Below, in pieces: positions 7,875 to 60,986 of a stretch of 64,000 bases of DNA. The position numbers and the translations under genes are program-made. This DNA comes from a virus. Below the pieces are notes generated by a model. The model was given only the letters and a program-made list of their open reading frames with translations, had not been told where the DNA came from and did not search any database. The stretch covers positions 192,001 to 256,000 of IMG/VR virus record IMGVR_UViG_3300045988_179268; one strand, written 5' to 3'. Position 1 is the stretch's first letter; each line of letters begins with the position of its first letter.

Positions 7875-8255
7875 ATGGATGACATGTTCTACAACAACAT
7901 CCCCGCATCAGCGGTACCACTCCACACCTATAATGACTTCACCGTCCCCCTGCAAGTAACACCCTTCAACGGTTGCTCCATCGAGGAAACTGTAGAGTTT
8001 TTCAAGCGAACCATCTTCGATGCAATCCTCACCATCGACACCACCAACAAGCGCTACCTCATTGAGTTTTACCAAGGCAACACCAAGCTAGGGGAAACCG
8101 CCTACAGCCTCCCCAACCCACCCCACTACCACCACCTCGCACTAACAGAAGAACTCTTCGGAGAAATCACCATCCCATACCCCACCCTAGAAGCAGGCTC
8201 AGAAACAGAAGGGGCTAACGCAGAACTTAAAATTCACGCCATCGACATTAGCTAA
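7875..8255 (+). CDS. hypothetical protein
   Basis: ATG after GAAAGG; TAA stop. Confidence 0.6.
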   Translation: MDDMFYNNIPASAVPLHTYNDFTVPLQVTPFNGCSIEETVEFFKRTIFDAILTIDTTNKRYLIEFYQGNTKLGETAYSLPNPPHYHHLALTEELFGEITIPYPTLEAGSETEGANAELKIHAIDIS

Positions 8256-28438: not shown

Positions 28439-28537
28439 CGTCACAGTGGCGTGTAGGGGTGATTGAGTGGCATAAAACCTGCAATCACCCCTATGCGCAG
28501 AAACACACCTGCATATTCCACGGAAGAAGGCTCACAT

Positions 28538-29671: not shown

Positions 29672-29746
29672 ACCCCTGTATGGTGGCGCTAACCCTAAAT
29701 CTAGGTAAGAGTTAGTGCCACCATACGCGACACACCAAAGGAAACC

Positions 29747-30832: not shown

Positions 30833-30858
30833 CCCCCATACGAAAGGCATCCATTGCA

Positions 30859-31971: not shown

Positions 31972-32095
31972 GCCGTATAAGCAAAGAGCTTTACAGTGTA
32001 CCCCAGATTGTGTACAATAGATACATAATCTGGGGTACACTTATGTGACACCCCTACAGTTCACTTATTGCAACCGTACACAAAGGAGGAGTTTC

Positions 32096-33277: not shown

Positions 33278-33354
33278 TATAGCTGAGTGTTTTTGTGGCG
33301 GGCAACCCCCTTTCTCGCGGTGGAGTTGCCCGCCACAACTATGCACACAACATA

Positions 33355-33365
33355 TGTGGTACAGT
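33355..33365 (+). promoter_or_regulatory. promoter motif
   Basis: TGTGGTACAGT. Confidence 0.6.
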
Positions 33366-33415
33366 ATAATTGTATCCATGTTGGAGAAATATTCAGAGAA
33401 ATTAGAGGCAGGAAA

Positions 33416-34603
33416 TTGACCGAACACACCAAGTTCCATGCAGTAGAAGCCCACGAAGTTAAGCCAGGCGACATCCTCATTGAAGCACCTAGTGAAACAT
33501 GGTTGGGGAAGCATTTTCAAGCCGCCCACCTCGTCACCAAGATTACAGACGCTAACGAAATAGTGAGCATCAGCACCCATCAGCCACACGAACCCCTCAA
33601 CATTACAGAAACCCCTATAGCCATCATTAAGGAAGGCAGTGCCAACGGGAGCTGGGAACAGTACAGCAAAGCAGTTGGAGCAGTCGTTGAATATAGTGAA
33701 GAGTTATTCAATATTACTAGTAAGCTTGACTCACTCAAGAACCTCTTCCATGACATCAAATCATGGCGCGAGAAGTTCACCCCCAGTATCCCGCTAACCT
33801 ATGGTGAATACGAATCGCTGGTTGCAAGTCACACCCAGCTTCTAGACACCATAGAAACTGCCATCGAGTATGCCGACAAGCACTTCATTCCCACCATACA
33901 GCACCTATACTCAACTGAGCTTGACGGCATTTCAGAGCGCCAGCAGAAACAGTATACTCCGCCGGTAACTGTTGTGGGCGGAGGTATGACCAAGAACGAT
34001 AAGGTGGCTAAAGCTTTCGAGTCCCTAAAACATGGTAGCTACCTTGCCATCAAACTAGATAACACAGATGGAGAAACAGACTACTGTATTGCAAAATTTG
34101 AAGGCGTTAAGGGCAACATCCGAAAGTTTGCACACCTAAAGTTCCACAATGGAGAAATCGACGGCGACATAGCTTTTGGGCGCAAAAACCTCTACTCCTC
34201 ACGACGAACTCTACATGTAGACGGGCTAGAGAAGAAGGTGGGGGTAATTTTCCTTACTCCAACCAAATCCTACAAATCTGCGTTGGAATACGTGGAAGTC
34301 ATGGATGTACAAGTGAGACTTATGCATTCATTTGATAGCGCGATGCTCTTTTGCCCCAACTCTCTCTGGAAGGACTCTCTGAAAGCCGTAACGCACAACA
34401 AGGCACTCATGGAGCGAAAAGCACACGAAGATAACACTTATGATGGGTGGACATCTGACAGGTTCCTGTGCGCTATAACTGAGACATACGGTAAGCTAAC
34501 TGAAATTGCGGGCAAGCTACGAGCAGTAACACCCCTGCTAGAACAAATGAACCACGCAAACCACAAGTTGCAACCCGAACAGCGACAGCCAAGCATTGAG
34601 TAA
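33416..34603 (+). CDS. GDV-motif paralog 6 of 6
   Basis: TTG 33416 lies 7 nt after GAGG and downstream of promoter 33355-33365; KPGDILIE; track start 33287 lies inside the terminator and promoter. Confidence 0.6.
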   Translation: MTEHTKFHAVEAHEVKPGDILIEAPSETWLGKHFQAAHLVTKITDANEIVSISTHQPHEPLNITETPIAIIKEGSANGSWEQYSKAVGAVVEYSEELFNITSKLDSLKNLFHDIKSWREKFTPSIPLTYGEYESLVASHTQLLDTIETAIEYADKHFIPTIQHLYSTELDGISERQQKQYTPPVTVVGGGMTKNDKVAKAFESLKHGSYLAIKLDNTDGETDYCIAKFEGVKGNIRKFAHLKFHNGEIDGDIAFGRKNLYSSRRTLHVDGLEKKVGVIFLTPTKSYKSALEYVEVMDVQVRLMHSFDSAMLFCPNSLWKDSLKAVTHNKALMERKAHEDNTYDGWTSDRFLCAITETYGKLTEIAGKLRAVTPLLEQMNHANHKLQPEQRQPSIE

Positions 34604-34858: not shown

Positions 34859-36061
34859 ATGAACCTACTAGAGCATTACCGCGACAACTACAGCCATGTT
34901 GTTCGCCTCAATAAGCATGAGGCAACCGGGCTAACCTGCGTCAAGTACAAGCCTGACGTTTATGACTTTACTGACCCTTACGTCCGAATGGCGCGAGGTC
35001 TAGTCCTCAACGACCAGGGCGACATTATCCTGCGAGGATTCAATAAGTTCTTCAACTGGAAGCAGTACGACCTCAAGACCACGGTAGACCGTAAGTTCAA
35101 GGAAGAGTTTACCCACATGGGGTCATTTGCGCCTGACGAGAAGGTCACCTTCTATGAGAAGCTAGACGGAACCTGCATCATTGTTGGACTCTACGAAGGC
35201 GAATACCTGTTTGCTACTCCCGGCGCTGTTGAAACCCCTAAGTATCAGGAGCCGGTACATCGACTACTAAACGAAGCTCCGCAAGTTAAGGCATGGCTGG
35301 AAGAAAACCCGGACATGTGCCTCATCTTCGAGTACACTTCCCCCTACAACATCATTAACGTGCTGTACGAGGAGGAGAACCTTACTCTCATTGGTCTGGC
35401 AAGTAAGACTTACGGCGACCGTAGCCCCCTGGAAATGCTCGAAGTAGCCGAGAAGCTAAACCTCCCCGCACCGAAGGTCTACCACATGACCATTCCCGAA
35501 GTGTCACAGGTTCAGGAAGAAACCAAGGGCATTGAAGGATTCATTGCTGTAAACCAGTATGGGCACCTCTTGAAGTTCAAGACCGAGGACTGGTTCATGC
35601 ACAGCAACGACTTCCTCCACCCCTATGTGAACAAGTCGTCACGTCCCGCCGTCCGCCGAATCATCCAGGCAGTCGCAAACGGAACGATTGACGACATGCT
35701 GGCACGCCAGGCAACCCTATCCGAGAAGGATATTGAGGATAAGATTTCCGTTGTTGTTGAATGTGTTGAAGAGCTTCTAGCTGAGGGGCAGGAGAAGTAC
35801 CTCCAGCTCAAGCAGGCGCTTGACTCTGCGCCGACCGAGGAAGCTAAGTATGAGGCTCGTGTAAAGTTCTTCGACCCGAAGAGCAAGAGTGCAACGAACC
35901 CTCAGATGGCACTAGTGACCACTCACCTGCGAGGCAAGACGTTCTCCCAGCTTATCGAAGAACACCCGGCACGCCTCAAGTCCTTCACCCAGGACATCAT
36001 GGAGCGACTTATCGCCCGAGGGGTCAGCGTGACCATCGAAAAGCCGCGCCCCAAGCAGTAA
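34859..36061 (+). CDS. RNA ligase
   Basis: nucleotidyltransferase motifs EKLDGT (KxDG), IFEY, EGFIAV, LKFK. Confidence 0.8.
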   Translation: MNLLEHYRDNYSHVVRLNKHEATGLTCVKYKPDVYDFTDPYVRMARGLVLNDQGDIILRGFNKFFNWKQYDLKTTVDRKFKEEFTHMGSFAPDEKVTFYEKLDGTCIIVGLYEGEYLFATPGAVETPKYQEPVHRLLNEAPQVKAWLEENPDMCLIFEYTSPYNIINVLYEEENLTLIGLASKTYGDRSPLEMLEVAEKLNLPAPKVYHMTIPEVSQVQEETKGIEGFIAVNQYGHLLKFKTEDWFMHSNDFLHPYVNKSSRPAVRRIIQAVANGTIDDMLARQATLSEKDIEDKISVVVECVEELLAEGQEKYLQLKQALDSAPTEEAKYEARVKFFDPKSKSATNPQMALVTTHLRGKTFSQLIEEHPARLKSFTQDIMERLIARGVSVTIEKPRPKQ

Positions 36062-38229: not shown

Positions 38230-39384
38230 ATGCCGTCCAAGGAACTTCCTGTAAAGGTAGGCAAGCTTAAAGTCTACGTTCATCTCAAAGTAAATGACCG
38301 CAAGGTGCAAGACTCCATGCTGGAGTACTACAACGCATACATTAAAGTATGCAACCTAGCCAGCAAAGTCGCATACACCCTCAACACGGTAAGCGTGAAC
38401 CGAATCCACGCCCGCGTAAAGAGCGACGCGCGATTCTACGAAGAACAGCACCCTGGAGTACTAGACCGCGCCATTGACGCAGTAACCAAAGACTACGCAA
38501 ATCACGTGGCAGGCGTGAATAAATTCCCCGAAGCACGCACATACAGCGTCCACGACATCCCTGTATGTCAGGACACTGATTACGACTTCATTCCGCTGGG
38601 CAATAATCGACATGGCGTGGAACTCTACCTTGCTAACCGTAGTAGCGGATTCCCTATCACCGTACAGTTCTTGGCGGAATGGCTAAACCTACCCAATGGT
38701 CACGCATACTCCACAACCGCCTCTACCGCCGAACTGTCGTTCGACCACAAGCTAGGTTGGCTCCTTAAGTACGACATGTACACTGTACAGAATACCGTAG
38801 TGGGCATTGACCTGGGCACACGTTTCCTTGCCGTCACCTACGACGGTAAGGAAACTAAGTTCTATCGTGGCGGTGACACCCCCCTCCGGCATGAGATGGC
38901 GACGTATAGCCGCCGCCGCCTAAGTCTCAAGGAGAAGGGTACTCGTAGCGCCCGTAAGCGACTCAAAGCCCTCTCAGACGACTGGCATAAGCATCTGGAA
39001 GCAAATATTAAGAAGACTGTCAAGGAAATTCTTAAGGGTGCTGAGCCTCATACTGTGTTCGCTCTAGAAGATATTGCCGCATCTCCAGAATTGCGAGAGC
39101 GATTCGCCAAAGAAGACGTGGGTAAGCTACCGACCGTCATCTTTGACATGTTCATCCGAACCCTCCGAGATGAGGCGCAGAAACGTGGACATATTTTTAT
39201 TACCGTTTCTAAGGCAAAAACTAGCACAAGGTGCCCCGCATGTGGTATGATTATTAAAAGCAACAGGAAGCAGGGCAAACACATCTACGGATGCTCCTGT
39301 GGTTTCAGGTCTAACGACGACCGTGTAGCCGCAATTAATATCCGTGAACGTGGCATTGTTCGGCTAACTGAACGCCTAGCATAA
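38230..39384 (+). CDS. tnpB: TnpB-family RNA-guided endonuclease (384 aa)
   Basis: GIDLGTRF, ALEDI, zinc ribbon CPACG..CSCG, NDDRVAAINI. Confidence 0.85.
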   Translation: MPSKELPVKVGKLKVYVHLKVNDRKVQDSMLEYYNAYIKVCNLASKVAYTLNTVSVNRIHARVKSDARFYEEQHPGVLDRAIDAVTKDYANHVAGVNKFPEARTYSVHDIPVCQDTDYDFIPLGNNRHGVELYLANRSSGFPITVQFLAEWLNLPNGHAYSTTASTAELSFDHKLGWLLKYDMYTVQNTVVGIDLGTRFLAVTYDGKETKFYRGGDTPLRHEMATYSRRRLSLKEKGTRSARKRLKALSDDWHKHLEANIKKTVKEILKGAEPHTVFALEDIAASPELRERFAKEDVGKLPTVIFDMFIRTLRDEAQKRGHIFITVSKAKTSTRCPACGMIIKSNRKQGKHIYGCSCGFRSNDDRVAAINIRERGIVRLTERLA

Positions 39385-45437: not shown

Positions 45438-45525
45438 ACAACCAAACCTACTGGTGGGTGCCCGCACATACTTATATGATATGCGGGTGCCCACCACACA
45501 AACAGCCGCATGAAAGGTGGTGACA

Positions 45526-46287
45526 ATGACCAACGAAGAACCAAAAATTACCTTTGAAAGCATCCTGCAAAACTGGAACGCACATTATAACCCTATCGCT
45601 AAGGCGCAGACACAACAGCCCATTAAGGCATTAGAGTTAAGCGCCACCATGCGTAACCCCCAAACACCGGCAGGCACATACCCCGCGTTCGAAACCTACC
45701 TTGGTGTTGATGTACTCGAAAAGAAATGTCAGCTTAGACAAGAGAAGCGGCGAAAGCGTAAGGAAATCAGAGGGAAACTCTTTGACTTCCTGAAAGTTGT
45801 CATCACTATACTGCTTGTAGGTGGCGCAATCATCGGCGGTTTCATGTTCTTCAAGCCCAGCACCCCACAGAACACTAGCAATGGTGATATTCAAAACGTC
45901 CCTCAGGCGGCAGAAACCATTACAATAGCATCACCGACCACCACCACCTCGGCGGCACCCACCCCGACAGCGGTACCCGAAGGAACCGTAACGCCCACAG
46001 CGGACGCCACACCAGAACAGAAACACTGCCTTACCACCCCAACCAAATCTCCATTCTTGGACGGTAACGGTGCGTTACACTATGGAAAAGGCACTGGACA
46101 TGATTCATACTATGTTCCCGCCAATGAGGACTGTGGTGTGCGATACACGGCAGAGGACGGAAGTAGCTACCATGAAGAGGACGACAACTCAGTAGGTAAA
46201 GAGATTGCCAAAGCTATCCTCCTCATTGTGAGTGTAGCTATAGGCATGATTCTTCTCGTGATGTTCATTGCCATCCTCGCCATCTAG
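45526..46287 (+). CDS. membrane protein, paralog of 46396..47106
   Basis: ATG after GAAAGGTGG; shared NPxTPxGTYPAFE and YYVPxNEDCGVRYT motifs, central TM, PT-rich stretch, C-terminal TM. Confidence 0.6.
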   Translation: MTNEEPKITFESILQNWNAHYNPIAKAQTQQPIKALELSATMRNPQTPAGTYPAFETYLGVDVLEKKCQLRQEKRRKRKEIRGKLFDFLKVVITILLVGGAIIGGFMFFKPSTPQNTSNGDIQNVPQAAETITIASPTTTTSAAPTPTAVPEGTVTPTADATPEQKHCLTTPTKSPFLDGNGALHYGKGTGHDSYYVPANEDCGVRYTAEDGSSYHEEDDNSVGKEIAKAILLIVSVAIGMILLVMFIAILAI

Positions 46288-46310
46288 ACGACCTCCAAAA
46301 AGAAACCCAT

Positions 46311-46361
46311 ATTGCGACTGGGTGCCTAGCACTATAAGTAGTGCAGGTACCCAGTCGCAAT
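46311..46361 (+). terminator. hairpin terminator
   Basis: ATTGCGACTGGGTGCC/GGTACCCAGTCGCAAT stem. Confidence 0.55.
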
Positions 46362-46395
46362 AACCTACAAGAAAGAAAGGTAGGACAAGAAACCA

Positions 46396-47106
46396 ATGCC
46401 CAGTAAGAGCAATAAGCGACTAGCCGGTGATACCACTAAAAGCTGTATCAGCCACGGTAACACCAAATCGTTAAACGCCGCTACCCGCAACCCTGCAACT
46501 CCGACAGGAACATACCCAGCATTTGAGAGTCACCTCGGGGTTACTGCGCTTGAAAAGAAACATGAACACAAACAAGCTAAACAGCATAAGTGGGTAGCCC
46601 GCAAAGAAAGCATCTCACTACTCCTCAAAACCGTAGTGCCCGTATTCCTTGTAACCGGGGTACTACTTGGTGGCATTATGCTCTTCGCTGGCAACACTCC
46701 ACGAACCAACACTGATAATCAAGCCACTGTTAGTGCCCAGATGACCGCAACACCTCAACCTACCGCCACTCCCACCCCCGAAGCAACAGCAAAGCCAACC
46801 CCAACAAAAACATCTACCGCCTTTATTCAGAAATTGTGTTCCACCACCCCCACGGCAACCCCTTACAGGGACAGCAACGGAGTTATGCAACACCCGGCGG
46901 GTTCAGGAAGAGACGCATACTATGTTCCCTTCAACGAGGACTGTGGCGTGCGATATACGCAAGCGAAGACTGATAAGCCTGCCTCCTCATCAAGCCTGGG
47001 TGACTACCCTATCCTCTTCATCCCTCTCGTTATCGCAATAATGCTAATCGGTGGCGGCGGAATCGCCATAATGGTTGAGAAAACCATGCAAAATTTAACT
47101 AGCTAA
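46396..47106 (+). CDS. membrane protein, paralog of 45526..46287
   Basis: same motifs and architecture as its neighbour. Confidence 0.6.
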   Translation: MPSKSNKRLAGDTTKSCISHGNTKSLNAATRNPATPTGTYPAFESHLGVTALEKKHEHKQAKQHKWVARKESISLLLKTVVPVFLVTGVLLGGIMLFAGNTPRTNTDNQATVSAQMTATPQPTATPTPEATAKPTPTKTSTAFIQKLCSTTPTATPYRDSNGVMQHPAGSGRDAYYVPFNEDCGVRYTQAKTDKPASSSSLGDYPILFIPLVIAIMLIGGGGIAIMVEKTMQNLTS

Positions 47107-47520: not shown

Positions 47521-47585
47521 TTTTGTAGCAAGTGAAGGGAAAGCCTTCACAGAGAATCAATGCAATCTACCGAAAGGTGCCCACA

Positions 47586-47996
47586 ATGACCAAGCAGACC
47601 ACCGAAACCCCCAAGGTAATCAAGCTCACCGACGAATGGGGCGACCCTCTCATCGACGGAGACGGAAACCTCCTCGTACCCAAGGAAATTAAGGTAGGCG
47701 CAACCATCAAATTCGACACTTTCCGCAACGATGGTACCCGCGTAACCTCAACCCGCTTCATCACCGGCGGCAACAGTACCCGCCTCACCATTAAGGATTA
47801 CACCGGAAAGCCCGACGGCACCCTCAACGTAATCCAGTGCAACCGCGAATGCTTCACCTGCTGGGAAGACACTGACGACGAACTCCACAGCGAAGAAAAC
47901 TGCACCGGAGCCGTAACCTTCGACGGACTCGAATACATCAACGGTCAGGACATGAACTTCGGACAGGCACTCAATATCACTGTAACCAACCCCTAA
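47586..47996 (+). CDS. hypothetical protein
   Basis: ATG 47586 after GAAAGG; promoter at 47491-47520. Confidence 0.6.
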   Translation: MTKQTTETPKVIKLTDEWGDPLIDGDGNLLVPKEIKVGATIKFDTFRNDGTRVTSTRFITGGNSTRLTIKDYTGKPDGTLNVIQCNRECFTCWEDTDDELHSEENCTGAVTFDGLEYINGQDMNFGQALNITVTNP

Positions 47997-49327: not shown

Positions 49328-49398
49328 GCCCATCTAGCTTAATGTAAAGCAACAGTCTTCAAAACTGTGAGATGTCGGTTCAAGTCCGGCGGTGGGTG
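49328..49398 (+). tRNA. tRNA with UCA anticodon (UGA-reading; suppressor or Trp-like)
   Basis: acceptor GCCCATC/GGTGGGT, D arm GCTT/AAGC, anticodon arm ACAGT-CTTCAAA-ACTGT, T arm GTCGG-TTCAAGT-CCGGC, discriminator G. Confidence 0.8.
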
Positions 49399-49447
49399 CT
49401 TGCAAGTAACAAAACCGGAGTTCTAGCCGAAAGTGGCGTAACTTGCG

Positions 49448-53496: not shown

Positions 53497-53570
53497 ATCC
53501 CAGTAGCTCAGTGGATAGAGCGCCCGCCTCCTAAGCGGGGTCGTCACAGGTTCGACTCCTGTCTGGGATA
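53497..53570 (+). tRNA. tRNA-Arg(CCT)
   Basis: acceptor ATCCCAG/CTGGGAT, anticodon arm CCCGC-CTCCTAA-GCGGG, T arm ACAGG-TTCGACT-CCTGT. Confidence 0.85.
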
Positions 53571-53604
53571 CTTTTAGGTAAACCTGTTTTTTAGGTTTAC
53601 CGTT

Positions 53605-53677
53605 GCCTCCTTAGCTCAGCGGATAGAGTACCCGATTCCGAGTCGGGTGGTCACAGGTTCGATTCCTGTAGGAGGCG
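53605..53677 (+). tRNA. tRNA-Arg(CCG)
   Basis: acceptor GCCTCCT/AGGAGGC, anticodon arm CCCGA-TTCCGAG-TCGGG, T arm ACAGG-TTCGATT-CCTGT. Confidence 0.85.
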
Positions 53678-53678
53678 C

Positions 53679-53750
53679 GTCCCCGTGGTCTAATCGGGAG
53701 GATGCCGCTCTCTCAAGGCGGCGATGCGGGTTCGAGTCCCGTCGGGGGTA
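53679..53750 (+). tRNA. tRNA-Glu(CTC)
   Basis: acceptor GTCCCCG/CGGGGGT, anticodon arm CCGCT-CTCTCAA-GGCGG, T arm GCGGG-TTCGAGT-CCCGT. Confidence 0.8.
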
Positions 53751-53874
53751 CGCTCATGCGCGGCTTTTTGTTGCGTGTGTTGTGGTGACTTTCGGTAGTT
53801 ACCTTTTTTGTACGGCTTGGGCTGGGTTTGGTTTTTCCTCACTTTTGCCTTACTCAGGTTTCTGGTCGTGTTTC

Positions 53875-53947
53875 GCGCTTTTAGCTCAGTTGGTAGAGCA
53901 AGGGACTCTTAATCCCTGGGTCGCGGGTTCGAGCCCCGCAGGGCGCA
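53875..53947 (+). tRNA. tRNA-Lys(CTT)
   Basis: acceptor GCGCTTT/AGGGCGC, anticodon arm AGGGA-CTCTTAA-TCCCT, T arm GCGGG-TTCGAGC-CCCGC. Confidence 0.85.
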
Positions 53948-53977
53948 CGTAGCACATTCCTTTTGGGTGTGTTTACT

Positions 53978-54128
53978 CACCTCGCCTGTGAGGGACTGGG
54001 AGAGGTGGCTAATCTAAACGGATGGGTAGCTTTGATTGCCTGTCAAGACCAGGAGAATCTGCCTTTGGTGGGTTTGAGGGTCACCGTCTAATAAAATATT
54101 AGACCCAACCCTGTGCAGGGGATGGCTC
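53978..54128 (+). ncRNA. E-module E12
   Basis: follows tRNA-Lys(CTT); all blocks present; ends CCCAACCCTGTGCAGGGGATGGCTC. Confidence 0.7.
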
Positions 54129-54175
54129 GACAAAAAAGTCAGGCGGTGTTTTCCCTGTATACGCGGGGATGACTC
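54100..54175 (+). CRISPR. E12 terminal repeat plus one repeat, 18-nt interval
   Basis: repeat TGTTTTCCCTGTATACGCGGGGATGACTC at 54147-54175. Confidence 0.4.
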
Positions 54176-54206
54176 ACCGCTAATATGTACAATTCCATAC
54201 CTTTTT

Positions 54207-54279
54207 GCCCTAGTAGCTCAGGGGATAGAGCAGTCGCCTTCTAAGCGATTGGTCGCAGGTTCGAATCCTGCCTGGGGCA
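54207..54279 (+). tRNA. tRNA-Arg(TCT)
   Basis: acceptor GCCCTAG/CTGGGGC, anticodon arm GTCGC-CTTCTAA-GCGAT, T arm GCAGG-TTCGAAT-CCTGC. Confidence 0.85.
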
Positions 54280-54306
54280 CGCTATATGCCTCAAGGTGTG
54301 TCGCAA

Positions 54307-54459
54307 CACCTCGCCTGTGAGGGACTGGGAGAGGTGGTTAATCTAAACGGGTGGGTGGCTTTGGTTGCCTGCCAAGACCAGGAAAGCTGGCTTCGGTCAG
54401 TTTGAGGGTCACCGTCAAAGTAAAACTTTGGCTCATCTACCGCATAAAGTGAATGGGAA
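54307..54459 (+). ncRNA. E-module E13
   Basis: follows tRNA-Arg(TCT); all blocks present; end of the E2 type, CTCATCTACCGCATAAAGTGAATGGGA. Confidence 0.7.
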
Positions 54460-54495
54460 ATGTGGGTTGGCGAGGTGTTTATCCTTGTCAATAAG

Positions 54496-54638
54496 GATTT
54501 TCCCCGTACACGCGGGGATGGCTCCTGGACCCTCAAACTTGCTAGAGTAGAGCACGTATTTTCCCCGTACACGCGGGGATGGCTCTAACGTCAAGCCTAT
54601 TAGCGTTTACGTTTTCCCTTGTATGCGTGGGGTGACTC
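54496..54638 (+). CRISPR. three-repeat, two-spacer type I-E-like mini-array
   Basis: R1 54496-54524 and R2 54557-54585 are 28/29 identical (ATTTTCCCCGTACACGCGGGGATGGCTC). Spacer 1 is 32 nt (period 61). Degenerate terminal repeat at 54610-54638 after a 24-nt spacer. Confidence 0.65.
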
Positions 54639-54669
54639 ACAATAACCCTTTTATATATTCACAACATAT

Positions 54670-54743
54670 GCCCCCGTGGTCTAATTGGTCAGGATGCCAC
54701 TTTCTCAAGGTGGGTGGTACGGGTTCGAGTCCCGTCGGGGGTA
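54670..54743 (+). tRNA. tRNA-Glu(CTC), second copy
   Basis: acceptor GCCCCCG/CGGGGGT, anticodon arm CCACT-TTCTCAA-GGTGG. Confidence 0.8.
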
Positions 54744-54775
54744 CGTTCATGCGCGGTTTTTGTTGCGTGTGTTTT

Positions 54776-54848
54776 GCGCTTTTAGCTCAGTTGGTAGAGC
54801 AACGGACTCTTAATCCGTGGGTCGCCGGTTCGAGTCCGGCAGGGCGCA
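54776..54848 (+). tRNA. tRNA-Lys(CTT), second copy
   Basis: anticodon arm ACGGA-CTCTTAA-TCCGT, T arm GCCGG-TTCGAGT-CCGGC. Confidence 0.85.
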
Positions 54849-54878
54849 CGTAGCACATTCCTTTTGGGTGTGTTTACT

Positions 54879-55029
54879 CACCTCGCCTGTGAGGGACTGG
54901 GAGAGGTGGCTAATCTAAACGGATGGGTAGCCTTTGGGTTGCCTGTCAAGACCAGGAAAATTAGCTTAGGCTGATTCGAGGGTCACCGTCTGGCAAAATG
55001 GCAGACCCACCCTTTGTAGGGGGCGGCTC
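54879..55029 (+). ncRNA. E-module E14
   Basis: follows the second tRNA-Lys(CTT); near-duplicate of E12; ends CCCACCCTTTGTAGGGGGCGGCTC. Confidence 0.7.
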
Positions 55030-55098: not shown

Positions 55099-55172
55099 TC
55101 CCTTGTAGCTCAATTGGCAGATGCGCCCGACTGTTAATCGGGAGGTTGTAGGTTCGAGTCCTTCCGGGGGAG
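55099..55172 (+). tRNA. tRNA-Asn(GTT), second copy
   Basis: 5' two-thirds identical to 51469-51542; acceptor TCCCTTG/CGGGGGA. Confidence 0.8.
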
Positions 55173-55188
55173 CTTTTAATATTGTGTT

Positions 55189-55225
55189 ACGCCCTTGCTG
55201 GTTTTTGCCGGTGAGGGCGTTTTTG
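55189..55225 (+). terminator. terminator closing the tRNA island
   Basis: ACGCCCT..AGGGCGT stem followed by TTTTT. Confidence 0.7.
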
Positions 55226-55236
55226 TTGTATAATTG

Positions 55237-55247
55237 GTGTACCACAT
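55237..55247 (-). promoter_or_regulatory. promoter motif on the minus strand facing the tRNA island
   Basis: reverse complement reads TGTGGTACACC; a plus-strand TATAAT at 55230-55235 overlaps the region. Confidence 0.4.
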
Positions 55248-55274
55248 ATTTTTTAGTTGAAAGGTTTTCATAGA

Positions 55275-56309
55275 ATGTTTGTTTGCGAGGATGTGTCCCC
55301 TGTTGGTTCTGGCAAGGTTCAGTCTATTTCTTTGGGGGAGTCATTTTTGCCTGGTGACGTGATGGATGTATTGAATCCGTCTATTCCGAGTGCGGCGGCG
55401 CGTATGGTATTGATTTATAAGCGTGATGTTGTCTCTGCTGGTGCGCAGTTGGTGGGCGTTTTCACTGTTTCTGCCGACCCTGCTACTTTTGCGGGTGGTG
55501 TTGATGGTCAGGGTATTATTCCAGGTGTTGCCTCTGGTTCGCTTGTTGAGCGTGTCGTTGAGAGTGTTCCTGTGCAGGGTGGTGATTACGCCTCACATGC
55601 GTTGAAGGTTGCGTCCTGGTTGTCTAATTCTGGTGTGCCGCTGGGTTATGGTGGTGATTTGCGCAATGGTTTTGCTTTTACTGCGTTTGAATCTGCTGAG
55701 GGCGCATGTGCTGTGCCTGATGCGTTTGAGTTTTTGGATGCGGCGGGTGTGTCTGTCCCTTGGTATAACGAGGGTAACTATTTCGGGTACACTGTTTCTG
55801 GTGTTAGTAAGATTAGTTCCCTTAAGGGTGTGGGTTCTGTGTTGGGCGACCTTGGTGACGTTGGTGTGGACTCCCGCGCGCTGAGTCAGGGGGTTGATGG
55901 TGCTGGCGACAATGCTTATGTCGCGTGGTTGCTGTGGGGTGTTGATGATGGTGGTCGTGTTGGGGATGTGCATCTTGTGGCTGGTGACCCGACGCTAAAT
56001 GGGTTCCCGACTGTGGGGTTGCCGTTTATTAAGGGCGCTCCTCAGCTTGTGGGTGTCCCGGTTGAGGAGTATGGTTATCGTTTGGTGACGAAAATGTTCA
56101 CTAATTTCACTTCTGTTTTTGTCACTATTAAGTCCCCTTTGTTTAATGCTAATCGTGTTTGTTATGATGCTGGTAAGGGTTTGTATTCTTTGCCTGTTGT
56201 GGTGACTTTGGGGTCTGAGTCGCCATTGTGGGTGCCTGGCGATTTGGGGGCGCGTATGCGCTATGTTAAGGCTGTTTTGGGGCGCGATGGGGCTTTAAAT
56301 ATCTTGTAA
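55275..56309 (+). CDS. G/V-rich paralog A in the GT-biased island
   Basis: ATG 55275 after GAAAGG (track TTG 55257); C-terminal YDAGKGLYSLPVVV matches the two downstream genes. Confidence 0.55.
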   Translation: MFVCEDVSPVGSGKVQSISLGESFLPGDVMDVLNPSIPSAAARMVLIYKRDVVSAGAQLVGVFTVSADPATFAGGVDGQGIIPGVASGSLVERVVESVPVQGGDYASHALKVASWLSNSGVPLGYGGDLRNGFAFTAFESAEGACAVPDAFEFLDAAGVSVPWYNEGNYFGYTVSGVSKISSLKGVGSVLGDLGDVGVDSRALSQGVDGAGDNAYVAWLLWGVDDGGRVGDVHLVAGDPTLNGFPTVGLPFIKGAPQLVGVPVEEYGYRLVTKMFTNFTSVFVTIKSPLFNANRVCYDAGKGLYSLPVVVTLGSESPLWVPGDLGARMRYVKAVLGRDGALNIL

Positions 56310-56388
56310 ATAGCCTTTTTGGGGAGCTTGTCATACTTTTGTGTGGCAGGCTCCTTTTTGTGTGTTTTCCGGGTTTTGGGCGGGTTGG

Positions 56389-56399
56389 TGTGGTAGACT
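56389..56399 (+). promoter_or_regulatory. promoter motif
   Basis: TGTGGTAGACT. Confidence 0.55.
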
Positions 56400-56462
56400 G
56401 GTGGTGGGGTTGCGTCGGGTCTTGACGTTGCCCCCTTTTTTCTATCTTTTTCTACTATTTTT

Positions 56463-57455
56463 TTGGAGGTTGTTGTGGCTTTTGATTGGTTGAGGGGCAT
56501 TTTTGGTGGTTCTGGTGATGGTGAGCCTGTTGAGGGTGGTGCTTTTAGGGAGTCGGGGGTTTCTGATGCTGATGTGATTGCTGAGTTGGAGGCTTCGTTG
56601 GGTGCGCCGTCTGGTGGTGTTGATGTTTCGCGTCTGGTTAGTTGTGAGTTTGGGTTGCCGGGGCATGTGTTGTTTTTGTTTAAGCCTGTGGGTGGTGGGT
56701 TTGTTTTGGATGGTGTGGTGTGTGTTGGTGTGAGTGGTCGTGGTGTTGGTGGTGTTGGTAATGGTCGTGGGGTGGTTTGTTTTGGGCAGGAGCCTGTGTT
56801 GGAGGTGTTGGGTGGTTCTAGGGTTTATTCTGTGGAGGATAATTTTAGTGAGGTTGGGCGTGGGTTGTATGGTGAGGTTTTGAGTGAGGGGTGTTTGTTT
56901 GTTGGGGTTGGTGAGTCTGGTGGTTTGGATTTGTTGAGGGTTGTTGAGTCGGATGGTGTTGATTTTATTTTGGGTGACCCGTCGTTGGTGGGTTTGGAGG
57001 TGGAGTCTTTTGATGGGGGTGAGTTTGTGTGTGTGATTGCGCATAATGTGCGTGTTGATTTGTCTGCTTCGGTTTCTGTTGGTGAGGCTGTTGGTTCTGT
57101 GGGTGATGTGGGTTCTGTGGCGCGTGAGTATGTTGGTGTTGAGGGTGCTATGGTCGGTTGGTTCTGTTGGTGGGCTTCGGCGGCTGGCGTTGAGTGGGGG
57201 TATGTTTTGGGTGACCCGCGTGGGGGTGGTTCGCCGGTGATGGATGTTCCGCTTGGCGGTATTTCGGGGTTGTTTAGTGGGCTTATTGCTGGTGTTGGCA
57301 GTATTGAGGATGTTGGTGTTAGGGTTGCTGGTTCGTTTAGGAATACTCGTTTCGGTAATGTTGAGTGGGTTGCTCCTTTGTATGATGATGGTCGTGCTTA
57401 TTATGATGAGGCGGCGCAGTTGTATGCGATGCCGGTGGTGACTGTTCTGCATTAG
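56463..57455 (+). CDS. G/V-rich paralog B in the GT-biased island (start uncertain, GTG 56475 possible)
   Basis: open frame in a stretch that is about 85 percent G+T; C-terminal YDDGRAYYDEAAQLYAMPVV. Confidence 0.5.
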   Translation: MEVVVAFDWLRGIFGGSGDGEPVEGGAFRESGVSDADVIAELEASLGAPSGGVDVSRLVSCEFGLPGHVLFLFKPVGGGFVLDGVVCVGVSGRGVGGVGNGRGVVCFGQEPVLEVLGGSRVYSVEDNFSEVGRGLYGEVLSEGCLFVGVGESGGLDLLRVVESDGVDFILGDPSLVGLEVESFDGGEFVCVIAHNVRVDLSASVSVGEAVGSVGDVGSVAREYVGVEGAMVGWFCWWASAAGVEWGYVLGDPRGGGSPVMDVPLGGISGLFSGLIAGVGSIEDVGVRVAGSFRNTRFGNVEWVAPLYDDGRAYYDEAAQLYAMPVVTVLH

Positions 57456-57577
57456 CGCCTTTACCCGCTTTCGGGGGTATGGGTTTTGCGCTGTGGGGTG
57501 TTAGAATAAGGTGTGTTGCTTGTCCCCTTTTTGGGGTTCGGTGATGCACCTTATTCTTTTTTGTTTTTGGGAGGTTT

Positions 57578-58585
57578 TTGTTGTCTTCGTCGTTCATGAA
57601 GGACCCGAATGTTGCTAGTTCGCCTGTTGATGGTCAGGTGTACAATATTGTTCCTTTGGAGGATTTGAATGAGTTTGACCGGGTGGATACGAGTCATTTC
57701 GTGTCTGAGCCTACGTTGGATTCGTTGGATGGGTTGGCTAATTTTGCGTTAGGTTCATCGTCTGAGTTCCTGTTCTTGTTTGAGGATTTGGACGGGGTTC
57801 CGGTTCTTTCTGGGATTGTGTTTGCGGTGACTACGCCTAACGGTGTTGGTCGAGCTATCTTGCCTGCGCATGACCGTATTGTGTCTAGCGTGTGGGATGA
57901 GGTTTGTAAGCGTTCCTCTTCAACTTCGCGTGAGCGTCTGTCTGTGGCGTGTGCCGAGGTACTGGTTGAGCGTGGCACAGCGTTCATGTCTGCTTATACT
58001 GATGCGTTGCCTATTGGTGTTGCTAGGAAGTTGCGTGGTAAGAATAATGGGCGTGAGGTGACAGCCCAGTATGTGTTGGATAACTATGGTTTGATGCCTC
58101 AAGATGCTGTGAAAGCACATGCTGTTGGGGTGTCTGCTGACTTCATGGTTTCGGATGCGGTGAAGGTTCTTTATCGGAAGGATTCTGAGGCTATTAACCC
58201 GGTGTCTGCGGGTCGTCCTGGGTGGGCGCATGTGGGTTGGTTGCAGTGGCGTATGAGTCCGACTACAGGTCTTGAGTTAGGATTGGGCTTTGGTGCTCCT
58301 TTTGGGGAGGCTGATTCTTTGCCTTACGTGCCGCTGGTTCCCGTCTTTAAAGACACCTTTAAGCGTATGGTTATGGCGTATTCTCCTTCTGAGGGTGCCG
58401 TCGGTGCTACATTTATGTCCATCATTCAGGATGGCACGTTTAAGGGTAACGGTGACGAGTTCACTATTGGTGGCGCACTTTATAATGACGGCAGGTACGC
58501 TTATGATTCCGCTTCGGGGGTTTATGCTATGCCTATTATTATTGAACAGCCGCGCGCCACGGCTAAGGTGTTCATGGTGAACTAG
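57578..58585 (+). CDS. paralog C in the GT-biased island (start uncertain)
   Basis: GGGAGG upstream; C-terminal YNDGRYAYDSASGVYAMPII. Confidence 0.55.
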   Translation: MLSSSFMKDPNVASSPVDGQVYNIVPLEDLNEFDRVDTSHFVSEPTLDSLDGLANFALGSSSEFLFLFEDLDGVPVLSGIVFAVTTPNGVGRAILPAHDRIVSSVWDEVCKRSSSTSRERLSVACAEVLVERGTAFMSAYTDALPIGVARKLRGKNNGREVTAQYVLDNYGLMPQDAVKAHAVGVSADFMVSDAVKVLYRKDSEAINPVSAGRPGWAHVGWLQWRMSPTTGLELGLGFGAPFGEADSLPYVPLVPVFKDTFKRMVMAYSPSEGAVGATFMSIIQDGTFKGNGDEFTIGGALYNDGRYAYDSASGVYAMPIIIEQPRATAKVFMVN

Positions 58586-58813
58586 TAGAAGTGCCAGTTA
58601 AGTGATATGTTTCACACTGGAAATGGTTGTTTTGAAGTGAAATAGCCTTTTGAGTGTGCTAGACTAGTGTTATCCACAAGTGGTGCGAGGATAAACGCCC
58701 TTCGTGCCACTGCTTAGGTGGTAAAAATTATTCATTTTAACCTACTATTTATGCATTGTGGATGACTGTATGCTGGGGAGGCTTTATAGTGCTCTTTTAA
58801 AGCCTCCCCTCTA

Positions 58814-58894
58814 GCGCTTGTGGCGGAATTGGCAGACGCGCCTGGCTCAAAATCAGGTTCCTTTGGAGTGTGGGTTCGAGTCCCACCTGGCGCA
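58814..58894 (+). tRNA. tRNA-Leu(CAA)
   Basis: acceptor GCGCTTG/CTGGCGC, anticodon arm CCTGG-CTCAAAA-TCAGG, long variable arm, T arm GTGGG-TTCGAGT-CCCAC. Confidence 0.85.
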
Positions 58895-59013
58895 CTCCTG
58901 TAACGGCGTAAAACCGTGTCCCAAGTCTTTCTGGGATGTGGGTATCAGAAGGGGTTTTTAAAGGTTTCACTCTTCTGTAAACAACATTCATGATTGATGA
59001 ATGCCTTTCTGTT

Positions 59014-59059: not shown

Positions 59060-59088
59060 TTGCAAGCCTGCTAGATATGTGGTACACT
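59060..59088 (+). promoter_or_regulatory. promoter
   Basis: TTGCAA, 17-nt spacer, TGTGGTACACT. Confidence 0.7.
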
Positions 59089-59141: not shown

Positions 59142-59648
59142 ATGCGCCCCTACGCCCGTACCTCTTCCCCTCGCACTCAGCTCCAGTCTCTTAAGGCACC
59201 TGTGTATCGAGAGATGAATAAGGTTAAGAATCGTATTGCTACTGAGAATACCCGCAATAACAATATTCTCATTAATACTCTTACCCCCTTGCTGTTTAAT
59301 TACCCTGAGTCTGAGGAGCGAACTCAGAAGACTCGCCTTCTGTTGGATGCGTCCGGCATTCATACTGCTAATATTGCTGTTCTGAGTAAGAAGAATGAGA
59401 AGTTGATGACTCTCTATGGGCAGTTGGTGACTGCTGAGCATCGAGCTTTGGTTACTCAGGTTTTTGTGGATGGACTCAATGATGAGTTTCAGAAGATTTT
59501 GAAGATGGATGGTGATTTGCGTTCGCCGTCTGCTGAGCTTCGTCGGTCGGTTGAGGATGTGCGCGCGCTAGTTTCTCCCGCTAAGACCAAGTTTAACCTG
59601 CCGCCCGTTCGGGCTTATGTATTGCCGCGTGAGTCTGTTGCGGCGTAA
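59142..59648 (+). CDS. hypothetical protein
   Basis: ATG 59142 after GAAGGA; promoter at 59060-59088. Confidence 0.6.
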   Translation: MRPYARTSSPRTQLQSLKAPVYREMNKVKNRIATENTRNNNILINTLTPLLFNYPESEERTQKTRLLLDASGIHTANIAVLSKKNEKLMTLYGQLVTAEHRALVTQVFVDGLNDEFQKILKMDGDLRSPSAELRRSVEDVRALVSPAKTKFNLPPVRAYVLPRESVAA

Positions 59649-59670
59649 GGGCTTTACAGTACGCAAAATA

Positions 59671-59681
59671 TGTGATATACT
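59671..59681 (+). promoter_or_regulatory. promoter motif
   Basis: TGTGATATACT. Confidence 0.55.
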
Positions 59682-59765: not shown

Positions 59766-60986
59766 ATGGAAACCACTGTTAAGCGAACTCTCGAAACTCC
59801 GCTGGATGCAACCGTCCGAGGTAATATTATTGCCGCCCGTAAGAATCAGGAAACCGGCACCGAATTTTACAACCTGTCTGCATATTACAAGGAACTGCTT
59901 GGGTTCCCTTATGCTTTTTCTACCCCGTCGCCACAGCATGTCGTTATTGACGAGAATCATTACCGCACTACAACTCTTAGCCCCCTAGATAGTGCGACTG
60001 TAGAGCATCTGACCCTGACTGCTTCCGAGAAGACCCCTGTCATTATCGAGGGCGTAGCTATCACTGGTCAGTATGTTGTAGGTTCAACTGGTGCTGTTCA
60101 CAGTCTGGTTGATTTGGGTAGTGTGGATGAGAACTACCTTATTGGCACTGGTCGTAGCATCTTCTATGCGCCGGTTAAGACCAAGGTCTTCTATTCGGTT
60201 GGTAACCTTGCGGCGAAGTATGGTCACCTGGGGGGCGTTGCAATGATTAACACTCTTGTGACGATGTACCGCGACTCCCACCCTGGCTATAAGAACGCTA
60301 TTGAGAAGGGTGAGTTGGAGGATTTTATTAAGTTTGCGGAGGCTCAGCCTAAGGGTGCCCGCGCTTTGGCTCTAAATGCTCCTAAGAGTGATGAGCCGCC
60401 TGCCGATTTCACTCTAGTCCCTTCCCTTGATGGCGCTGTTGTTGATAACCCTGCCGTGGTTTACAGTAATGAGCTTCTTTGTCGCTCCCTGTACCTTTCT
60501 CCTGAGCGTCACCGCGCCCTGGGTGGTACTGGTAAGCTCCCCGTATTCCTTGCCGCTGATGTCCGCCCTCGCGTAGAGGTGCTATTGAAGGCGGCGGGCC
60601 GTTCGCTGACTTATGATTTTGCGTGGCGTAAGGGTGTGCCGACTTCTCCGCTGTACACGGCAGAGCAGTACACTATGATTCGCTCTTGGATTCGCGCTGA
60701 GGGCGACAAGAAAAAGCCGTCTGATGAGTGGGTTGAACAGGCACGCGAGGTTTTCCCTGCCACTAAGCCGACCACCATGTATGCTTTGAGCCGACCCTTG
60801 CGCACTATTGTCGTGAATCAGGGTGAGGATATTGTGGTTGATGCCATTAAGAAGCATAAGGCTGAGATGGTGAAGATTGTCCGATTCAATAGTAAGGGCG
60901 TGGAGCCTATTAAGCTCCCTAGCTTGCTGTACACCAAGGAAACCGCTGATGCTCTTATGGGGGAGCTGACAGGTAAGGGTATCTAG
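59766..60986 (+). CDS. hypothetical protein
   Basis: ATG after AAGGAGA; promoter at 59671-59681. Confidence 0.65.
   Translation: METTVKRTLETPLDATVRGNIIAARKNQETGTEFYNLSAYYKELLGFPYAFSTPSPQHVVIDENHYRTTTLSPLDSATVEHLTLTASEKTPVIIEGVAITGQYVVGSTGAVHSLVDLGSVDENYLIGTGRSIFYAPVKTKVFYSVGNLAAKYGHLGGVAMINTLVTMYRDSHPGYKNAIEKGELEDFIKFAEAQPKGARALALNAPKSDEPPADFTLVPSLDGAVVDNPAVVYSNELLCRSLYLSPERHRALGGTGKLPVFLAADVRPRVEVLLKAAGRSLTYDFAWRKGVPTSPLYTAEQYTMIRSWIRAEGDKKKPSDEWVEQAREVFPATKPTTMYALSRPLRTIVVNQGEDIVVDAIKKHKAEMVKIVRFNSKGVEPIKLPSLLYTKETADALMGELTGKGI

Follow-up and report, generated by a model that had tools for sequence, protein, structure and literature searches.

Why would a phage keep A and C almost entirely out of the coding strand of a few adjacent genes, and what holds such a composition in place? 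These questions are raised by a 64,000-nucleotide (nt) stretch of virus DNA (positions 192,001 to 256,000 of IMG/VR record IMGVR_UViG_3300045988_179268), which we call the window. Positions 55190-58600 of the window form an island of extreme G+T content on the + strand that carries three protein-coding genes, here named X1, X2, and X3. The virus is an uncultivated jumbo phage (290-410 kb) seen in metagenomes only. Throughout, K denotes G or T, M denotes A or C, and K3 is the fraction of third codon positions occupied by G or T.

Composition of the island and its conservation

The island had been noticed in an earlier examination of the letters alone (the sequence-only reading), which put its G+T content at about 85% at 56.6 kb and about 70% near 55.3 kb. 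These estimates agree well with our measurements. Across the island, G+T on the + strand is 0.72 overall with a peak of 0.84, compared to 0.48 ± 0.05 elsewhere in the window. When computed in 500-nt segments, G+T is 0.65-0.72 from 55.0 to 56.5 kb, 0.84 at 56501-57000 (where the GC skew is +0.72 and the AT skew is -0.64), and 0.77 at 57001-57500, and then declines from 0.68 to 0.64 up to 58.5 kb. For 1-kb segments, the maximum inside 54-59 kb is 0.813, which is more than 6 standard deviations above the mean of the segments outside this range (mean 0.479, standard deviation 0.050, maximum 0.603). The bias in the window takes the form of a peak centred on X2, with the biased genes in one contiguous group. 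No such bias is seen in the rest of the window, and orthologues of the X genes carry it as well. Furthermore, the same pattern recurs in independent assemblies from many samples, and the island is therefore not an assembly artefact. Near-identical copies in public assemblies number in the hundreds and fall into clusters of 152-223 members.

All three codon positions are shifted. G+T at codon positions 1, 2, and 3 is 0.71/0.54/0.84 in X1, 0.82/0.64/0.973 in X2, and 0.65/0.47/0.82 in X3, compared to 0.49/0.41/0.48 in 19 other + strand open reading frames (ORFs). Among the 326 sense codons of X2, none ends in A and a fraction of just 0.027 ends in C. The proposal that the bias extends through the intergenic spacers holds for the two internal spacers (56310-56462 and 57456-57577, G+T 0.75 each), but not for the spacer after X3 (58586-58813), where G+T is just 0.58. 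The 83 nt upstream of X1 have a G+T of 0.71. Likewise, the proposed extent of 55190-58600 captures the main peak, but the third-position bias continues to 60986 through two further ORFs of 168 and 406 amino acids (aa; Table 1). The dinucleotide AC, estimated to occur about four times within 56463-57455, is present there exactly 4 times. Since base composition itself predicts a low count (8.9), we regard the scarcity of AC in X2 as a by-product.

As had been suspected, the three genes are paralogous, with similarity located in their C-terminal halves (E = 2e-9 for X1 and X2, 1e-7 for X2 and X3, and 7e-5 for X1 and X3). The C-terminal motif Y(D/N)DGRxxYDxAxxxYAMP, previously assigned to all three, is found in X2 and X3, but X1 has a degenerate version (LFNANRVCYDAGKGLYSLP). 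Codon periodicity, indels in multiples of 3, and motifs kept across clades all point to translation of these genes. The X proteins are under purifying selection, as their first- and second-position divergence resembles that of other genes.

Homologues of the X proteins and of the 406-aa protein occur only on metagenome contigs of 175-412 kb, where all are labelled hypothetical; one of the contigs from the three clades described below is BNJU01003487.1 (306 kb). The X family is lineage-specific and comprises 9 clusters among 1.84 billion representative proteins, and no DNA or protein match was found in the GenBank phage collection or IMG/VR. We compared the relatives over neighbourhoods of ~20 kb and distinguished three clades with a common gene order: a tRNA array, the X gene or genes, tRNA-Leu(CAA), a gene of ~406-411 aa, and a gene of ~200 aa. 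Clade A (the window, contigs L001 and L009, and others) carries X1-X3, or X2 and X3 with a remnant of X1. Clade B (L004 and L007) has a single X3-type gene with 59% protein identity, and clade C (L011 and L013) has a single X1-type gene with 44% protein identity.

The K3 values of the X genes are 0.79-0.99 in all three clades, and those of X2 are 0.97-0.99 in eight of eight distinct relatives, among which the gene is 981 or 984 nt long. The 406-411-aa gene, which is normal at codon positions 1 and 2, has a K3 of 0.69 in clade A, 0.86-0.87 in clade B, and 0.84-0.86 in clade C; the overall G+T of the 406-aa gene is 0.61. The 168-aa gene of clade A has a K3 of 0.77-0.79. The next gene, of ~200 aa, is normal (K3 0.45-0.53), and the remaining surroundings are unbiased or mildly biased, with a G+T of 0.53 in the tRNA-array spacers, 0.50-0.62 in the DNA around tRNA-Leu, and 0.45-0.62 as the intergenic range. 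Given this conservation in three clades and the normal neighbours, the bias is old and specific to genes or segments.

Borders of the biased segments are soft and independent of ORF limits. The stretch in clade B begins ~250 nt upstream of the start codon and extends to approximately codon 280 of the X gene, and K3 over the last ~60 codons is 0.43-0.60 in six of six sequences. The last X gene in clades A and C shows a softer 3′ drop (K3 of X3 declines to 0.65-0.80 over its last ~60 codons), whereas no drop is seen in X1 and X2, each of which has a further X gene behind it. The 406-aa family has a weaker bias in its first 40-60 and last 20 codons. Recent recombination was rejected as the origin of the unbiased 3′ end because third positions are saturated there too, and selection for accuracy was rejected because K3 is equal at invariant and variable residues.

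The composition also affects annotation. The gene calls of the clade B X genes (P0006, P0007, and P0009-P0012) are over-extended upstream by 40-90 residues because the G+T-rich leader lacks a stop codon. More generally, gene callers are misled by strand-pure segments, which offer several open frames, spurious antisense ORFs, and N-terminal extensions. A 336-codon ORF antisense to X2 was rejected as a gene since it is codon-aligned with X2; the absence of A from the third positions of X2 leaves no T-initial codon, and thus no stop codon, in that frame.

The pattern of codon use indicates what is being removed. In every four-fold family, codons ending in T and codons ending in G both occur, in about the ratio found in normal genes, and A- and C-ending codons are eliminated. 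For the 406-aa family of clades B and C, third-base T and G are 1.9 and 1.6 times as frequent as in normal genes, whereas C and A are reduced to 0.27 and 0.15 of their normal frequencies. Every two-fold pyrimidine box favours U over C (C is 5.6% in X2 compared to 63% in normal genes). Leucine is shifted from CTN to TTG, which is the main leucine codon of the biased genes and makes up 30-85% of their leucine codons compared to 7% in normal genes.

Amino acid usage in the X proteins follows the letters of the codons. Residues are enriched where the first two codon letters are both K (Gly 3.3-fold, Val 2.8-fold, and also Phe, Cys, and Trp) and depleted where both are M (Lys 20-fold, Thr 13-fold, and also Gln, Asn, and His). 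X2 contains 19.7% Gly, 17.2% Val, 0.3% Lys, 0.6% Thr, 0.6% Gln, 0.9% His, and 1.5% Asn. The residues that had been described as nearly absent are indeed rare in X2, with the exception of Pro (3.4%). In variable loops, the clade B X proteins read Gly/Val/Ser where those of clade A have Lys/Ser/Thr/Asn. Weakly constrained codon positions 1 and 2 in X drift to codons for Gly, Val, Phe, Leu, Cys, and Trp. The 406-aa protein has an ordinary amino acid composition despite its high K3.

The pressure acts on nucleotides, and neither on single optimal codons nor on a protein requirement. The sequence-only reading was correct in treating the bias as a property of the DNA or RNA: all codon positions and two spacers are shifted, TTG is used over CTN, and T and G endings are both accepted. 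The resulting arrangement, NNK coding, relies on the only strand-asymmetric two-letter alphabet for the third base that keeps all 20 amino acids, and selection for strand-pure coding must consequently give a G+T-rich sense strand.

Selection and the level at which it may act

Synonymous sites are usually read as a mirror of mutation bias or tRNA supply. We polarised young synonymous third-position variants (singletons) in 8 biased and 20 normal genes, using 4-9 distinct sequences per gene with recombination ignored. Singleton transitions from K to M outnumber those from M to K by 104 to 38 in the biased genes (binomial p = 3e-8), compared to 310 to 259 in normal genes. Per site, the changes that would create the bias occur at frequencies of 0.109 in biased versus 0.114 in normal genes (C>T) and 0.061 versus 0.091 (A>G). 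The reverse changes show a deficit of about 2.6-fold, at 0.049 versus 0.127 (T>C) and 0.038 versus 0.097 (G>A). Because new variants run against the bias and because C>T and A>G are not raised, the composition is off mutational equilibrium and is kept by selection, which here opposes the mutational flow.

Differences between related genomes show a similar picture. Within clade A, the third positions of X2 differ by 15 G<->T, 7 C<->T, and 0 A<->G changes, compared to 50 transitions and 4 G<->T changes in a normal neighbour. The comparison of the window with L009 gives 0.023 transitions per synonymous third site in X2, 0.12 in X3, and 0.05-0.19 in normal genes; G<->T changes per eligible site are similar across genes in the clade A comparison. 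Per third position overall, X2 has 0.02 transitions, compared to 0.11-0.19 in normal genes of similar G<->T depth. In clades B and C, the ratio of transitions to G<->T changes is 1.8-4.2 in biased genes versus 7-28 in normal genes.

Weak selection of this kind can work in this phage, since GATC is absent from the window (250 copies expected) and GGCC nearly so (6 found, 240 expected). Other palindromes were counted as well: GAATTC (1 found, 16 expected), CTGCAG (0 and 15), GGATCC (0 and 15), and CCGG (134 and 240). Throughout the three clades, palindromes are avoided as strongly in biased as in normal genes, and this avoidance does not explain the island. From these results, we consider it very probable that the bias is a selected, strand-specific trait of a small gene block that resides in the nucleic acid, rather than a mutational skew, a result of tRNA matching, or a protein requirement. 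Selection on base composition as such can be tested in the island, where it concerns few genes and spans deeply diverged phages.

A and C are purged from the coding strand wherever function permits, which gives NNK coding. In the explanation that we favour, though with low confidence, the selection on the nucleic acid would most likely act at transcription or on the RNA. We assign transcription- and RNA-level causes, taken jointly, a probability of approximately 0.35 to 0.4. The sense RNA consists of G and U, is poor in C and almost devoid of 78-nt windows in which C exceeds G, and its A/C-only complement cannot fold. The fraction of such windows is 0-7% in X, 4-12% in the 409/411-aa genes, and 52-70% in normal genes, and the antisense RNA of X2 is essentially unfolded (-0.06 kcal/mol per nt). 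RNA-directed machinery might handle these messages differently in infection. Candidates include base-dependent ribonucleases (RNases) or modifiers, Rho-type termination of uncoupled tRNA-operon transcripts, and a shortage of ATP and CTP. Expression of the biased messages could then continue under conditions in which ordinary phage messages rich in A and C fail.

We favour an RNA-level cause because the leader is biased and the 3′ end of the last gene is exempt, because RNA repair and tRNAs form a theme of the phage, and because the X proteins are fast evolving, copy variable, and acidic, features that are probably typical of host-directed functions. A more specific version of this explanation is offered tentatively: the X genes may represent a “keto-only” class, maintained by selection, whose composition frees the expression of a few probably host-directed proteins from a message-disabling agent in infection. 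Base-dependent RNA-targeting immunity, Rho-type termination, and ATP/CTP depletion are equally tentative candidates for this agent. If the agent were an RNA-directed defence, a termination factor, or an attack on the nucleotide pool, composition could flag counter-defence or “must-express” genes, and an RNA-level agent would make NNK recoding a design rule for nuclease- or termination-resistant messages.

A number of observations weigh against an RNA-level cause. The tests on RNase words, Chi, G-quadruplexes, and tRNA matches gave no signature of the selective agent. MazF, ChpB, and MqsR cleave at ^ACA, U^AC, and G^CU, respectively (PMC8546651). ACA per kb is 5.5 times lower in the island than in the rest of the window. 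However, relative to synonymous-codon shuffles, the z scores in biased genes are +1.6 for ACA, +4.3 for ACY, -0.1 for UAH, +0.6 for GCU, +0.7 for AAAU, and -3.6 for UAC. TAC tends to be low in normal genes too (z -1.3), and biased and normal genes share their under-represented words. No RNase motif was found to be depleted beyond codon usage in the biased genes. The earlier suggestion that these transcripts avoid ACA/ACY-type sites thus fails in its specific form, which leaves room for a more general selection at the RNA level. Moreover, the ribosome-dependent toxins RelE, YhaV, and E. coli HigB cleave ahead of a G in the third codon position (PMC8546651), and G-ending codons are therefore no shield against them. 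P. vulgaris HigB and YafQ favour A-rich codons (PMC4931118), a preference that fits only the A part of the bias.

Other difficulties concern folding, the identity of the avoided bases, and the exempt regions. The sense RNAs of X1-X3 have folding energies of -0.21 to -0.34 kcal/mol per nt versus -0.22 to -0.29 for normal genes. An unstructured-mRNA model was rejected because the biased sense RNAs fold as stably as those of normal genes. A is avoided even more than C, a feature not expected from simple models of Rho-proofing or R-loops, in which A would be tolerated or preferred over U. The 5′ untranslated regions (UTRs) of the 406-aa family are A-rich and unbiased. RNase evasion leaves these UTRs and the exempt 3′ end unexplained, and protection of the whole transcript fails for the unbiased last ~60 codons of the clade B X gene. 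Transitions show no visible suppression in the two G+T-rich spacers, although the numbers are small. Finally, profile searches with Pfam, PHROGs, NCBIfam, and PDB returned no significant match for X1-X3 or the 168-aa and 406-aa proteins. Two AlphaFold2 (AF2) models, with predicted local distance difference test (pLDDT) scores of 42 and 35, were unusable.

Alternatively, the sequence may matter as DNA, which we judge unlikely. The selected object would be a strand-pure G/T : A/C segment of ~1 kb that the genes accommodate at their free positions. Such a segment contains no palindromes and therefore no type II restriction site, hairpin, or cruciform, and its A/C strand cannot self-pair. Its role, at a similarly low likelihood, might be in the initiation of replication or recombination, in a single-stranded stage, or as a shield against site-specific nucleases or insertions. 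The soft segment edges that ignore ORF borders (best seen in the leader and ~280 codons of clade B), the contiguity of the biased genes around X2, and the very strong selection against restriction sites described above would all fit, and a new kind of strand-pure functional element would be at hand if the agent acts on DNA. However, 0.5-1.1 kb of normal DNA (spacers and tRNA-Leu) breaks the biased stretch in clades B and C. The 406-aa family is biased at third positions only, and few palindromes are removed at its G+T of 0.61. Also, third codon positions seem to be under tighter constraint than the G+T-rich spacers.

Specific DNA structures and recombination signals do not strengthen the case for a DNA-level function. 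G3 quadruplexes are lacking (0-1 motifs), and two-tetrad motifs number 40 in X2, 9-10 in X1 and X3, 0-4 in other genes, and none in the 406-aa gene. A switch-like region with G-quadruplexes and R-loops was likewise rejected, its positive GC skew notwithstanding: A is avoided in favour of T, in conflict with the R-loop optimum of a purine-rich RNA. The suggestion of Chi- or RecA-preferred DNA did not hold up either, since the Chi-like octamer GCTGGTGG, which may not be the Chi of the host, occurs 1 time in the window versus 0.9 expected and is not enriched.

Somewhat less probable still is a choice of codons tuned in translation to neighbouring tRNAs. Codons ending in G or U are read by tRNAs with C or A at anticodon position 34 (C34 or A34), or by wobble. 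Tuning to the C34 tRNAs for Leu-CAA, Glu-CTC, Lys-CTT, Arg-CCT, and Arg-CCG, and to Ala-AGC in clades B and C, might time or throttle translation, or might keep it going when U34 tRNAs are attacked. All C34 tRNA genes (Arg-CCT, Arg-CCG, two each of Glu-CTC and Lys-CTT, and Leu-CAA) lie at most 1.7 kb from the island, and these five species stand in the last 1.7 kb before it or directly after it. All clades keep tRNA-Leu(CAA) at its place between X and the 406-aa gene, alongside the elevated use of TTG. Furthermore, third positions alone carry the bias in the 168-aa and 406-aa genes, the UTRs of the latter are normal, and tRNA repair genes are present. Against tuning, U is preferred over C in two-fold boxes although one G34 tRNA reads both, and T and G endings are both used in four-fold boxes. 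Just ~62 of the 326 X2 codons (~19%) have a Watson-Crick phage tRNA. In X, the shift extends to codon positions 1 and 2 and to the leaders, the last ~60 codons in clade B are exempt, and strong Shine-Dalgarno sites speak against deliberately weak translation.

Strand-asymmetric mutation, whether by deamination of an exposed non-template or single strand or by deaminase hypermutation, had been the first cause suggested for the island, and we now regard it as very improbable. The skew has the direction classically seen on exposed strands, and the tRNA region is presumably heavily transcribed. In all three clades, biased genes exceed normal genes 3-5-fold in synonymous G<->T transversions per eligible site; a local mutation process could be responsible, as could deeper genealogies or a constraint on the choice between G and T elsewhere. 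Nevertheless, the singleton counts presented above contradict this cause, the transition flux is below that of normal genes, and the tRNA-array spacers, the flanking intergenic DNA, and an adjacent gene with the same promoter motif are all unbiased. Lower yet stands selection for Gly/Val-rich acidic proteins combined with an unrelated codon preference, which would make the nucleotide bias secondary. X2 is 37% Gly and Val and strongly acidic, and purifying selection acts on the X proteins, but third positions are the most biased, residues rise and fall by codon letters regardless of chemistry, the ordinary 406-aa protein reaches a K3 of 0.84-0.87, and K3 does not differ between conserved and variable residues. 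Biased gene conversion is implausible by reasoning alone because it would need repair that is both base specific and strand specific.

Arrangement of the locus in the phage genome

The island is located at the 3′ end of an array of 26 tRNA genes (48.7-58.9 kb of the window), between tRNA-Asn and tRNA-Leu(CAA). Its features are listed in Table 1.

Table 1. Features of the island and its surroundings, in window coordinates.
Feature	Position	Strand	Remarks
Phage promoter motif, copies	17831, 24366, 26064, 27254, 34775, 47509, 48623, 49305, 50221, 59077, 59670, 61048	+
C34 tRNA sub-cluster before tRNA-Asn (Arg-CCT, Arg-CCG, Glu-CTC x2, Lys-CTT x2)	53497-54849
tRNA-Asn(GTT), left border of island	55099-55173	+	ARAGORN; Rfam tRNA 53 bits
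Terminator-like hairpin and T run 3′ of tRNA-Asn	55189-55220	+	14 pairs, 8 GC
Sigma-70-like promoter 5′ of X1, TTGCCG-18-TATAAT	55205-55234	+	Predicted
Inverted copy of phage promoter motif, overlapping the sigma-70-like promoter of X1	55236-55247	-	1 mismatch
X1	55275-56309	+	344 aa from ATG (TTG at 55257 also possible); G+T 0.70, K3 0.84
Intrinsic-terminator-like hairpin after X1	56321-56356	+	Identical in the window, L001, and L009
GTGTGGTAGACT, copy of phage promoter motif ATGTGGTACACT	56388-56399	+	2 mismatches (A1 and C9 to G); conserved
Attenuator-like leader hairpin and U run, X2 leader	56403-56441	+	-20.6 kcal/mol for 56400-56480
336-codon antisense ORF over X2	56442-57452	-	G+T by codon position 0.03/0.36/0.18
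X2	56475-57455	+	326 aa, GTG start; G+T 0.81; 1 Lys; net charge ~-28
Long hairpin (57503-57557) and U run	57503-57563	+	-50.3 kcal/mol, z -6.0; conserved
X3	57581-58585	+	334 aa, TTG start as in P0001; G+T 0.65, K3 0.82
tRNA-Leu(CAA)	58814-58895	+	Between X and 406-aa gene in all three clades
168-aa ORF	59142-59648	+	Clade A only; K3 0.78; codon positions 1 and 2 normal; promoter motif 59077-59088
406-aa conserved ORF	59766-60986	+	K3 0.69; codon positions 1 and 2 and 5′ UTR normal; promoter motif 59670-59681

The phage promoter motif of 12 nt (ATGTGGTACACT, or ATGTG(G/A)TA(C/T)A(C/A)T) has 12 matches on the + strand of the window versus 0.15 expected, and its form suggests an extended -10 element or a promoter specific to the phage. 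Since copies of this motif lie upstream of tRNA groups, of the 168-aa and 406-aa genes with their bias, and equally of the 200-aa gene without it, the bias is not tied to promoter class. The conserved copy GTGTGGTAGACT in the X1-X2 spacer is a probable promoter of X2, and a TATAATTGGTGTA(C/G)CACAT block at the X1 promoter region is kept in clade C. Shine-Dalgarno sites are strong. The GTG start codon of X2 lies 5 nt after GGAGG (56465-56469), whereas the mechanical ORF start is 56463, and the long hairpin in the X2-X3 spacer is directly 5′ of the X3 ribosome-binding site GGGAGG (57569-57574). Given the hairpins and U runs in both internal spacers, read-through of terminators is probably required for X2 and X3 to be expressed. 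The X1-X2 spacer is ~99% identical across three clade A genomes, and orthologues of X1 share 99% (P0021), 78% (P0023), and 44% (P0018/P0027 of clade C) protein identity. A scan with Rfam found tRNAs and no other RNA family.

Recognisable genes in the window are few. A polynucleotide kinase-phosphatase (24413-25981; domains AAA_33 and metallophosphoesterase, PHROG “RNA ligase/polynucleotide kinase”) and a T4 Rnl1-like RNA ligase (34859-36061) make up a tRNA/RNA repair pair, which would imply host nucleases that leave cyclic-phosphate ends. Two TnpB / IS605 OrfB-like genes (2194-3750 and 38230-39384) have counterparts in L001 (1-1314), L004 (1-599), and L009 (1-653), and some of the TnpB-like genes of these phages adjoin the tRNA array. 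Two TnpB-based scans of GTDB contigs, with one genome per species, yielded no close relative and no lead to the host.

The tRNA array has several peculiarities of its own. A tRNA with anticodon UCA (49328-49399), which reads UGA, is one base (C34>T) from the tRNA-Trp(CCA) that L001 has at this location. Few ORFs in the window end in TGA (5 of the 60 of at least 100 aa), and the ORFs at 32045-33277 and 33287-34603 would become one of 853 codons if TGA were read through. These observations suggest an incipient or partial recoding of UGA in this one genome. An element of ~90-125 nt (GGTGTGT...CACCTCGCCTGTGAGGGACTGGGAGAGGTGG...) occurs three times behind late-array tRNA genes (53966-54090, 54295-54420, and 54867-54990; 78-89% identity), and a duplication of ~166 nt (53868-54033 and 54769-54934; 96%) carries the second copy of Lys-CTT. 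In clades B and C, tRNA-Ala(AGC), which is unusual for bacteria and phages, is present at 9346-9423 of L004, 9344-9421 of L007, 1046-1124 of L011, and 7228-7306 of L013. ARAGORN also reports tRNA-like genes with irregular anticodon loops in L007 (3627-3701 and 7880-7959) and L011 (3442-3514).

Compositional extremes and local paralogues occur elsewhere in the window. Four small ORFs (7095-7475, 7527-7856, 7875-8255, and 47532-47996) show the opposite extreme of third-position composition, with 54-59% C and a K3 of 0.20-0.25, such that K3 ranges from 0.20 to 0.99 across the genes of this phage. Four consecutive ORFs of ~360-400 aa (27311-31971) are related at 19-25% identity (E down to 6e-11), and two ORFs of ~240 aa (45517-47106) share 38% identity. 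No known domain was found in any member of these two families.

Comparison with known systems

Our literature searches found no precedent for phage genes described as G+T-rich, keto-skewed, or G+T-only. Several known systems nevertheless share features with the island. Exposed-strand skews are familiar from the vertebrate mitochondrial heavy strand and from excesses of G over C and T over A associated with transcription or replication, such as those in leading-strand genes of Borrelia. As in the island, G+T is in excess on one strand, the effect is strongest at synonymous sites, and amino acid usage is shifted. However, those skews are mutational and cover whole strands or regions, including noncoding DNA, whereas the island comprises a few genes with normal rates of C>T and A>G in which the reverse changes are selected against. 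Its third-position bias (97-99%) is also far beyond known exposed-strand skews.

Two other comparisons involve tRNAs. The bldA tRNA-Leu(UAA) of Streptomyces, which reads TTA, and phage tRNAs that match late genes resemble the island in that a rare leucine codon (TTG) is found near its cognate tRNA-Leu(CAA). Control of the bldA type differs because the bias of the island affects every codon family and three codon positions, and most of the favoured codons are without a phage tRNA. The tRNA region of phage T5 likewise has protein genes among its tRNA genes, with their own promoters and terminators. However, the 39 ORFs of that region have K3 values of 0.44-0.65 and include HNH endonucleases, whereas the X proteins are without a recognisable domain. 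The idea that such a bias is a general trait of ORFs in phage tRNA clusters was rejected since it is not seen in T5.

Engineered sequences provide two further parallels. ACA-less messages that resist MazF, as used in single-protein production, demonstrate that synonymous recoding can give immunity to an RNase. They differ from the island, where ACA is no rarer than codon usage predicts and A and C are removed in general. The NNK codons of synthetic libraries have G or T as the third base and keep 20 amino acids, and X2 is their natural equivalent. This likeness is purely formal, and it explains why a strand-pure gene is G/T-rich but not why it is selected.

Cases of avoidance offer a further comparison. 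Restriction-site avoidance in phages, as well as suppression of CpG and UpA and depletion of APOBEC3 motifs in animal viruses, resembles the island in that selection acts on the nucleic acid. Those systems drop short words genome-wide, whereas the island drops the single bases A and C from one strand of a few genes. A “keto-only” gene class would thus be a mononucleotide-level counterpart of CpG or restriction-site avoidance that is specific to both strand and gene.

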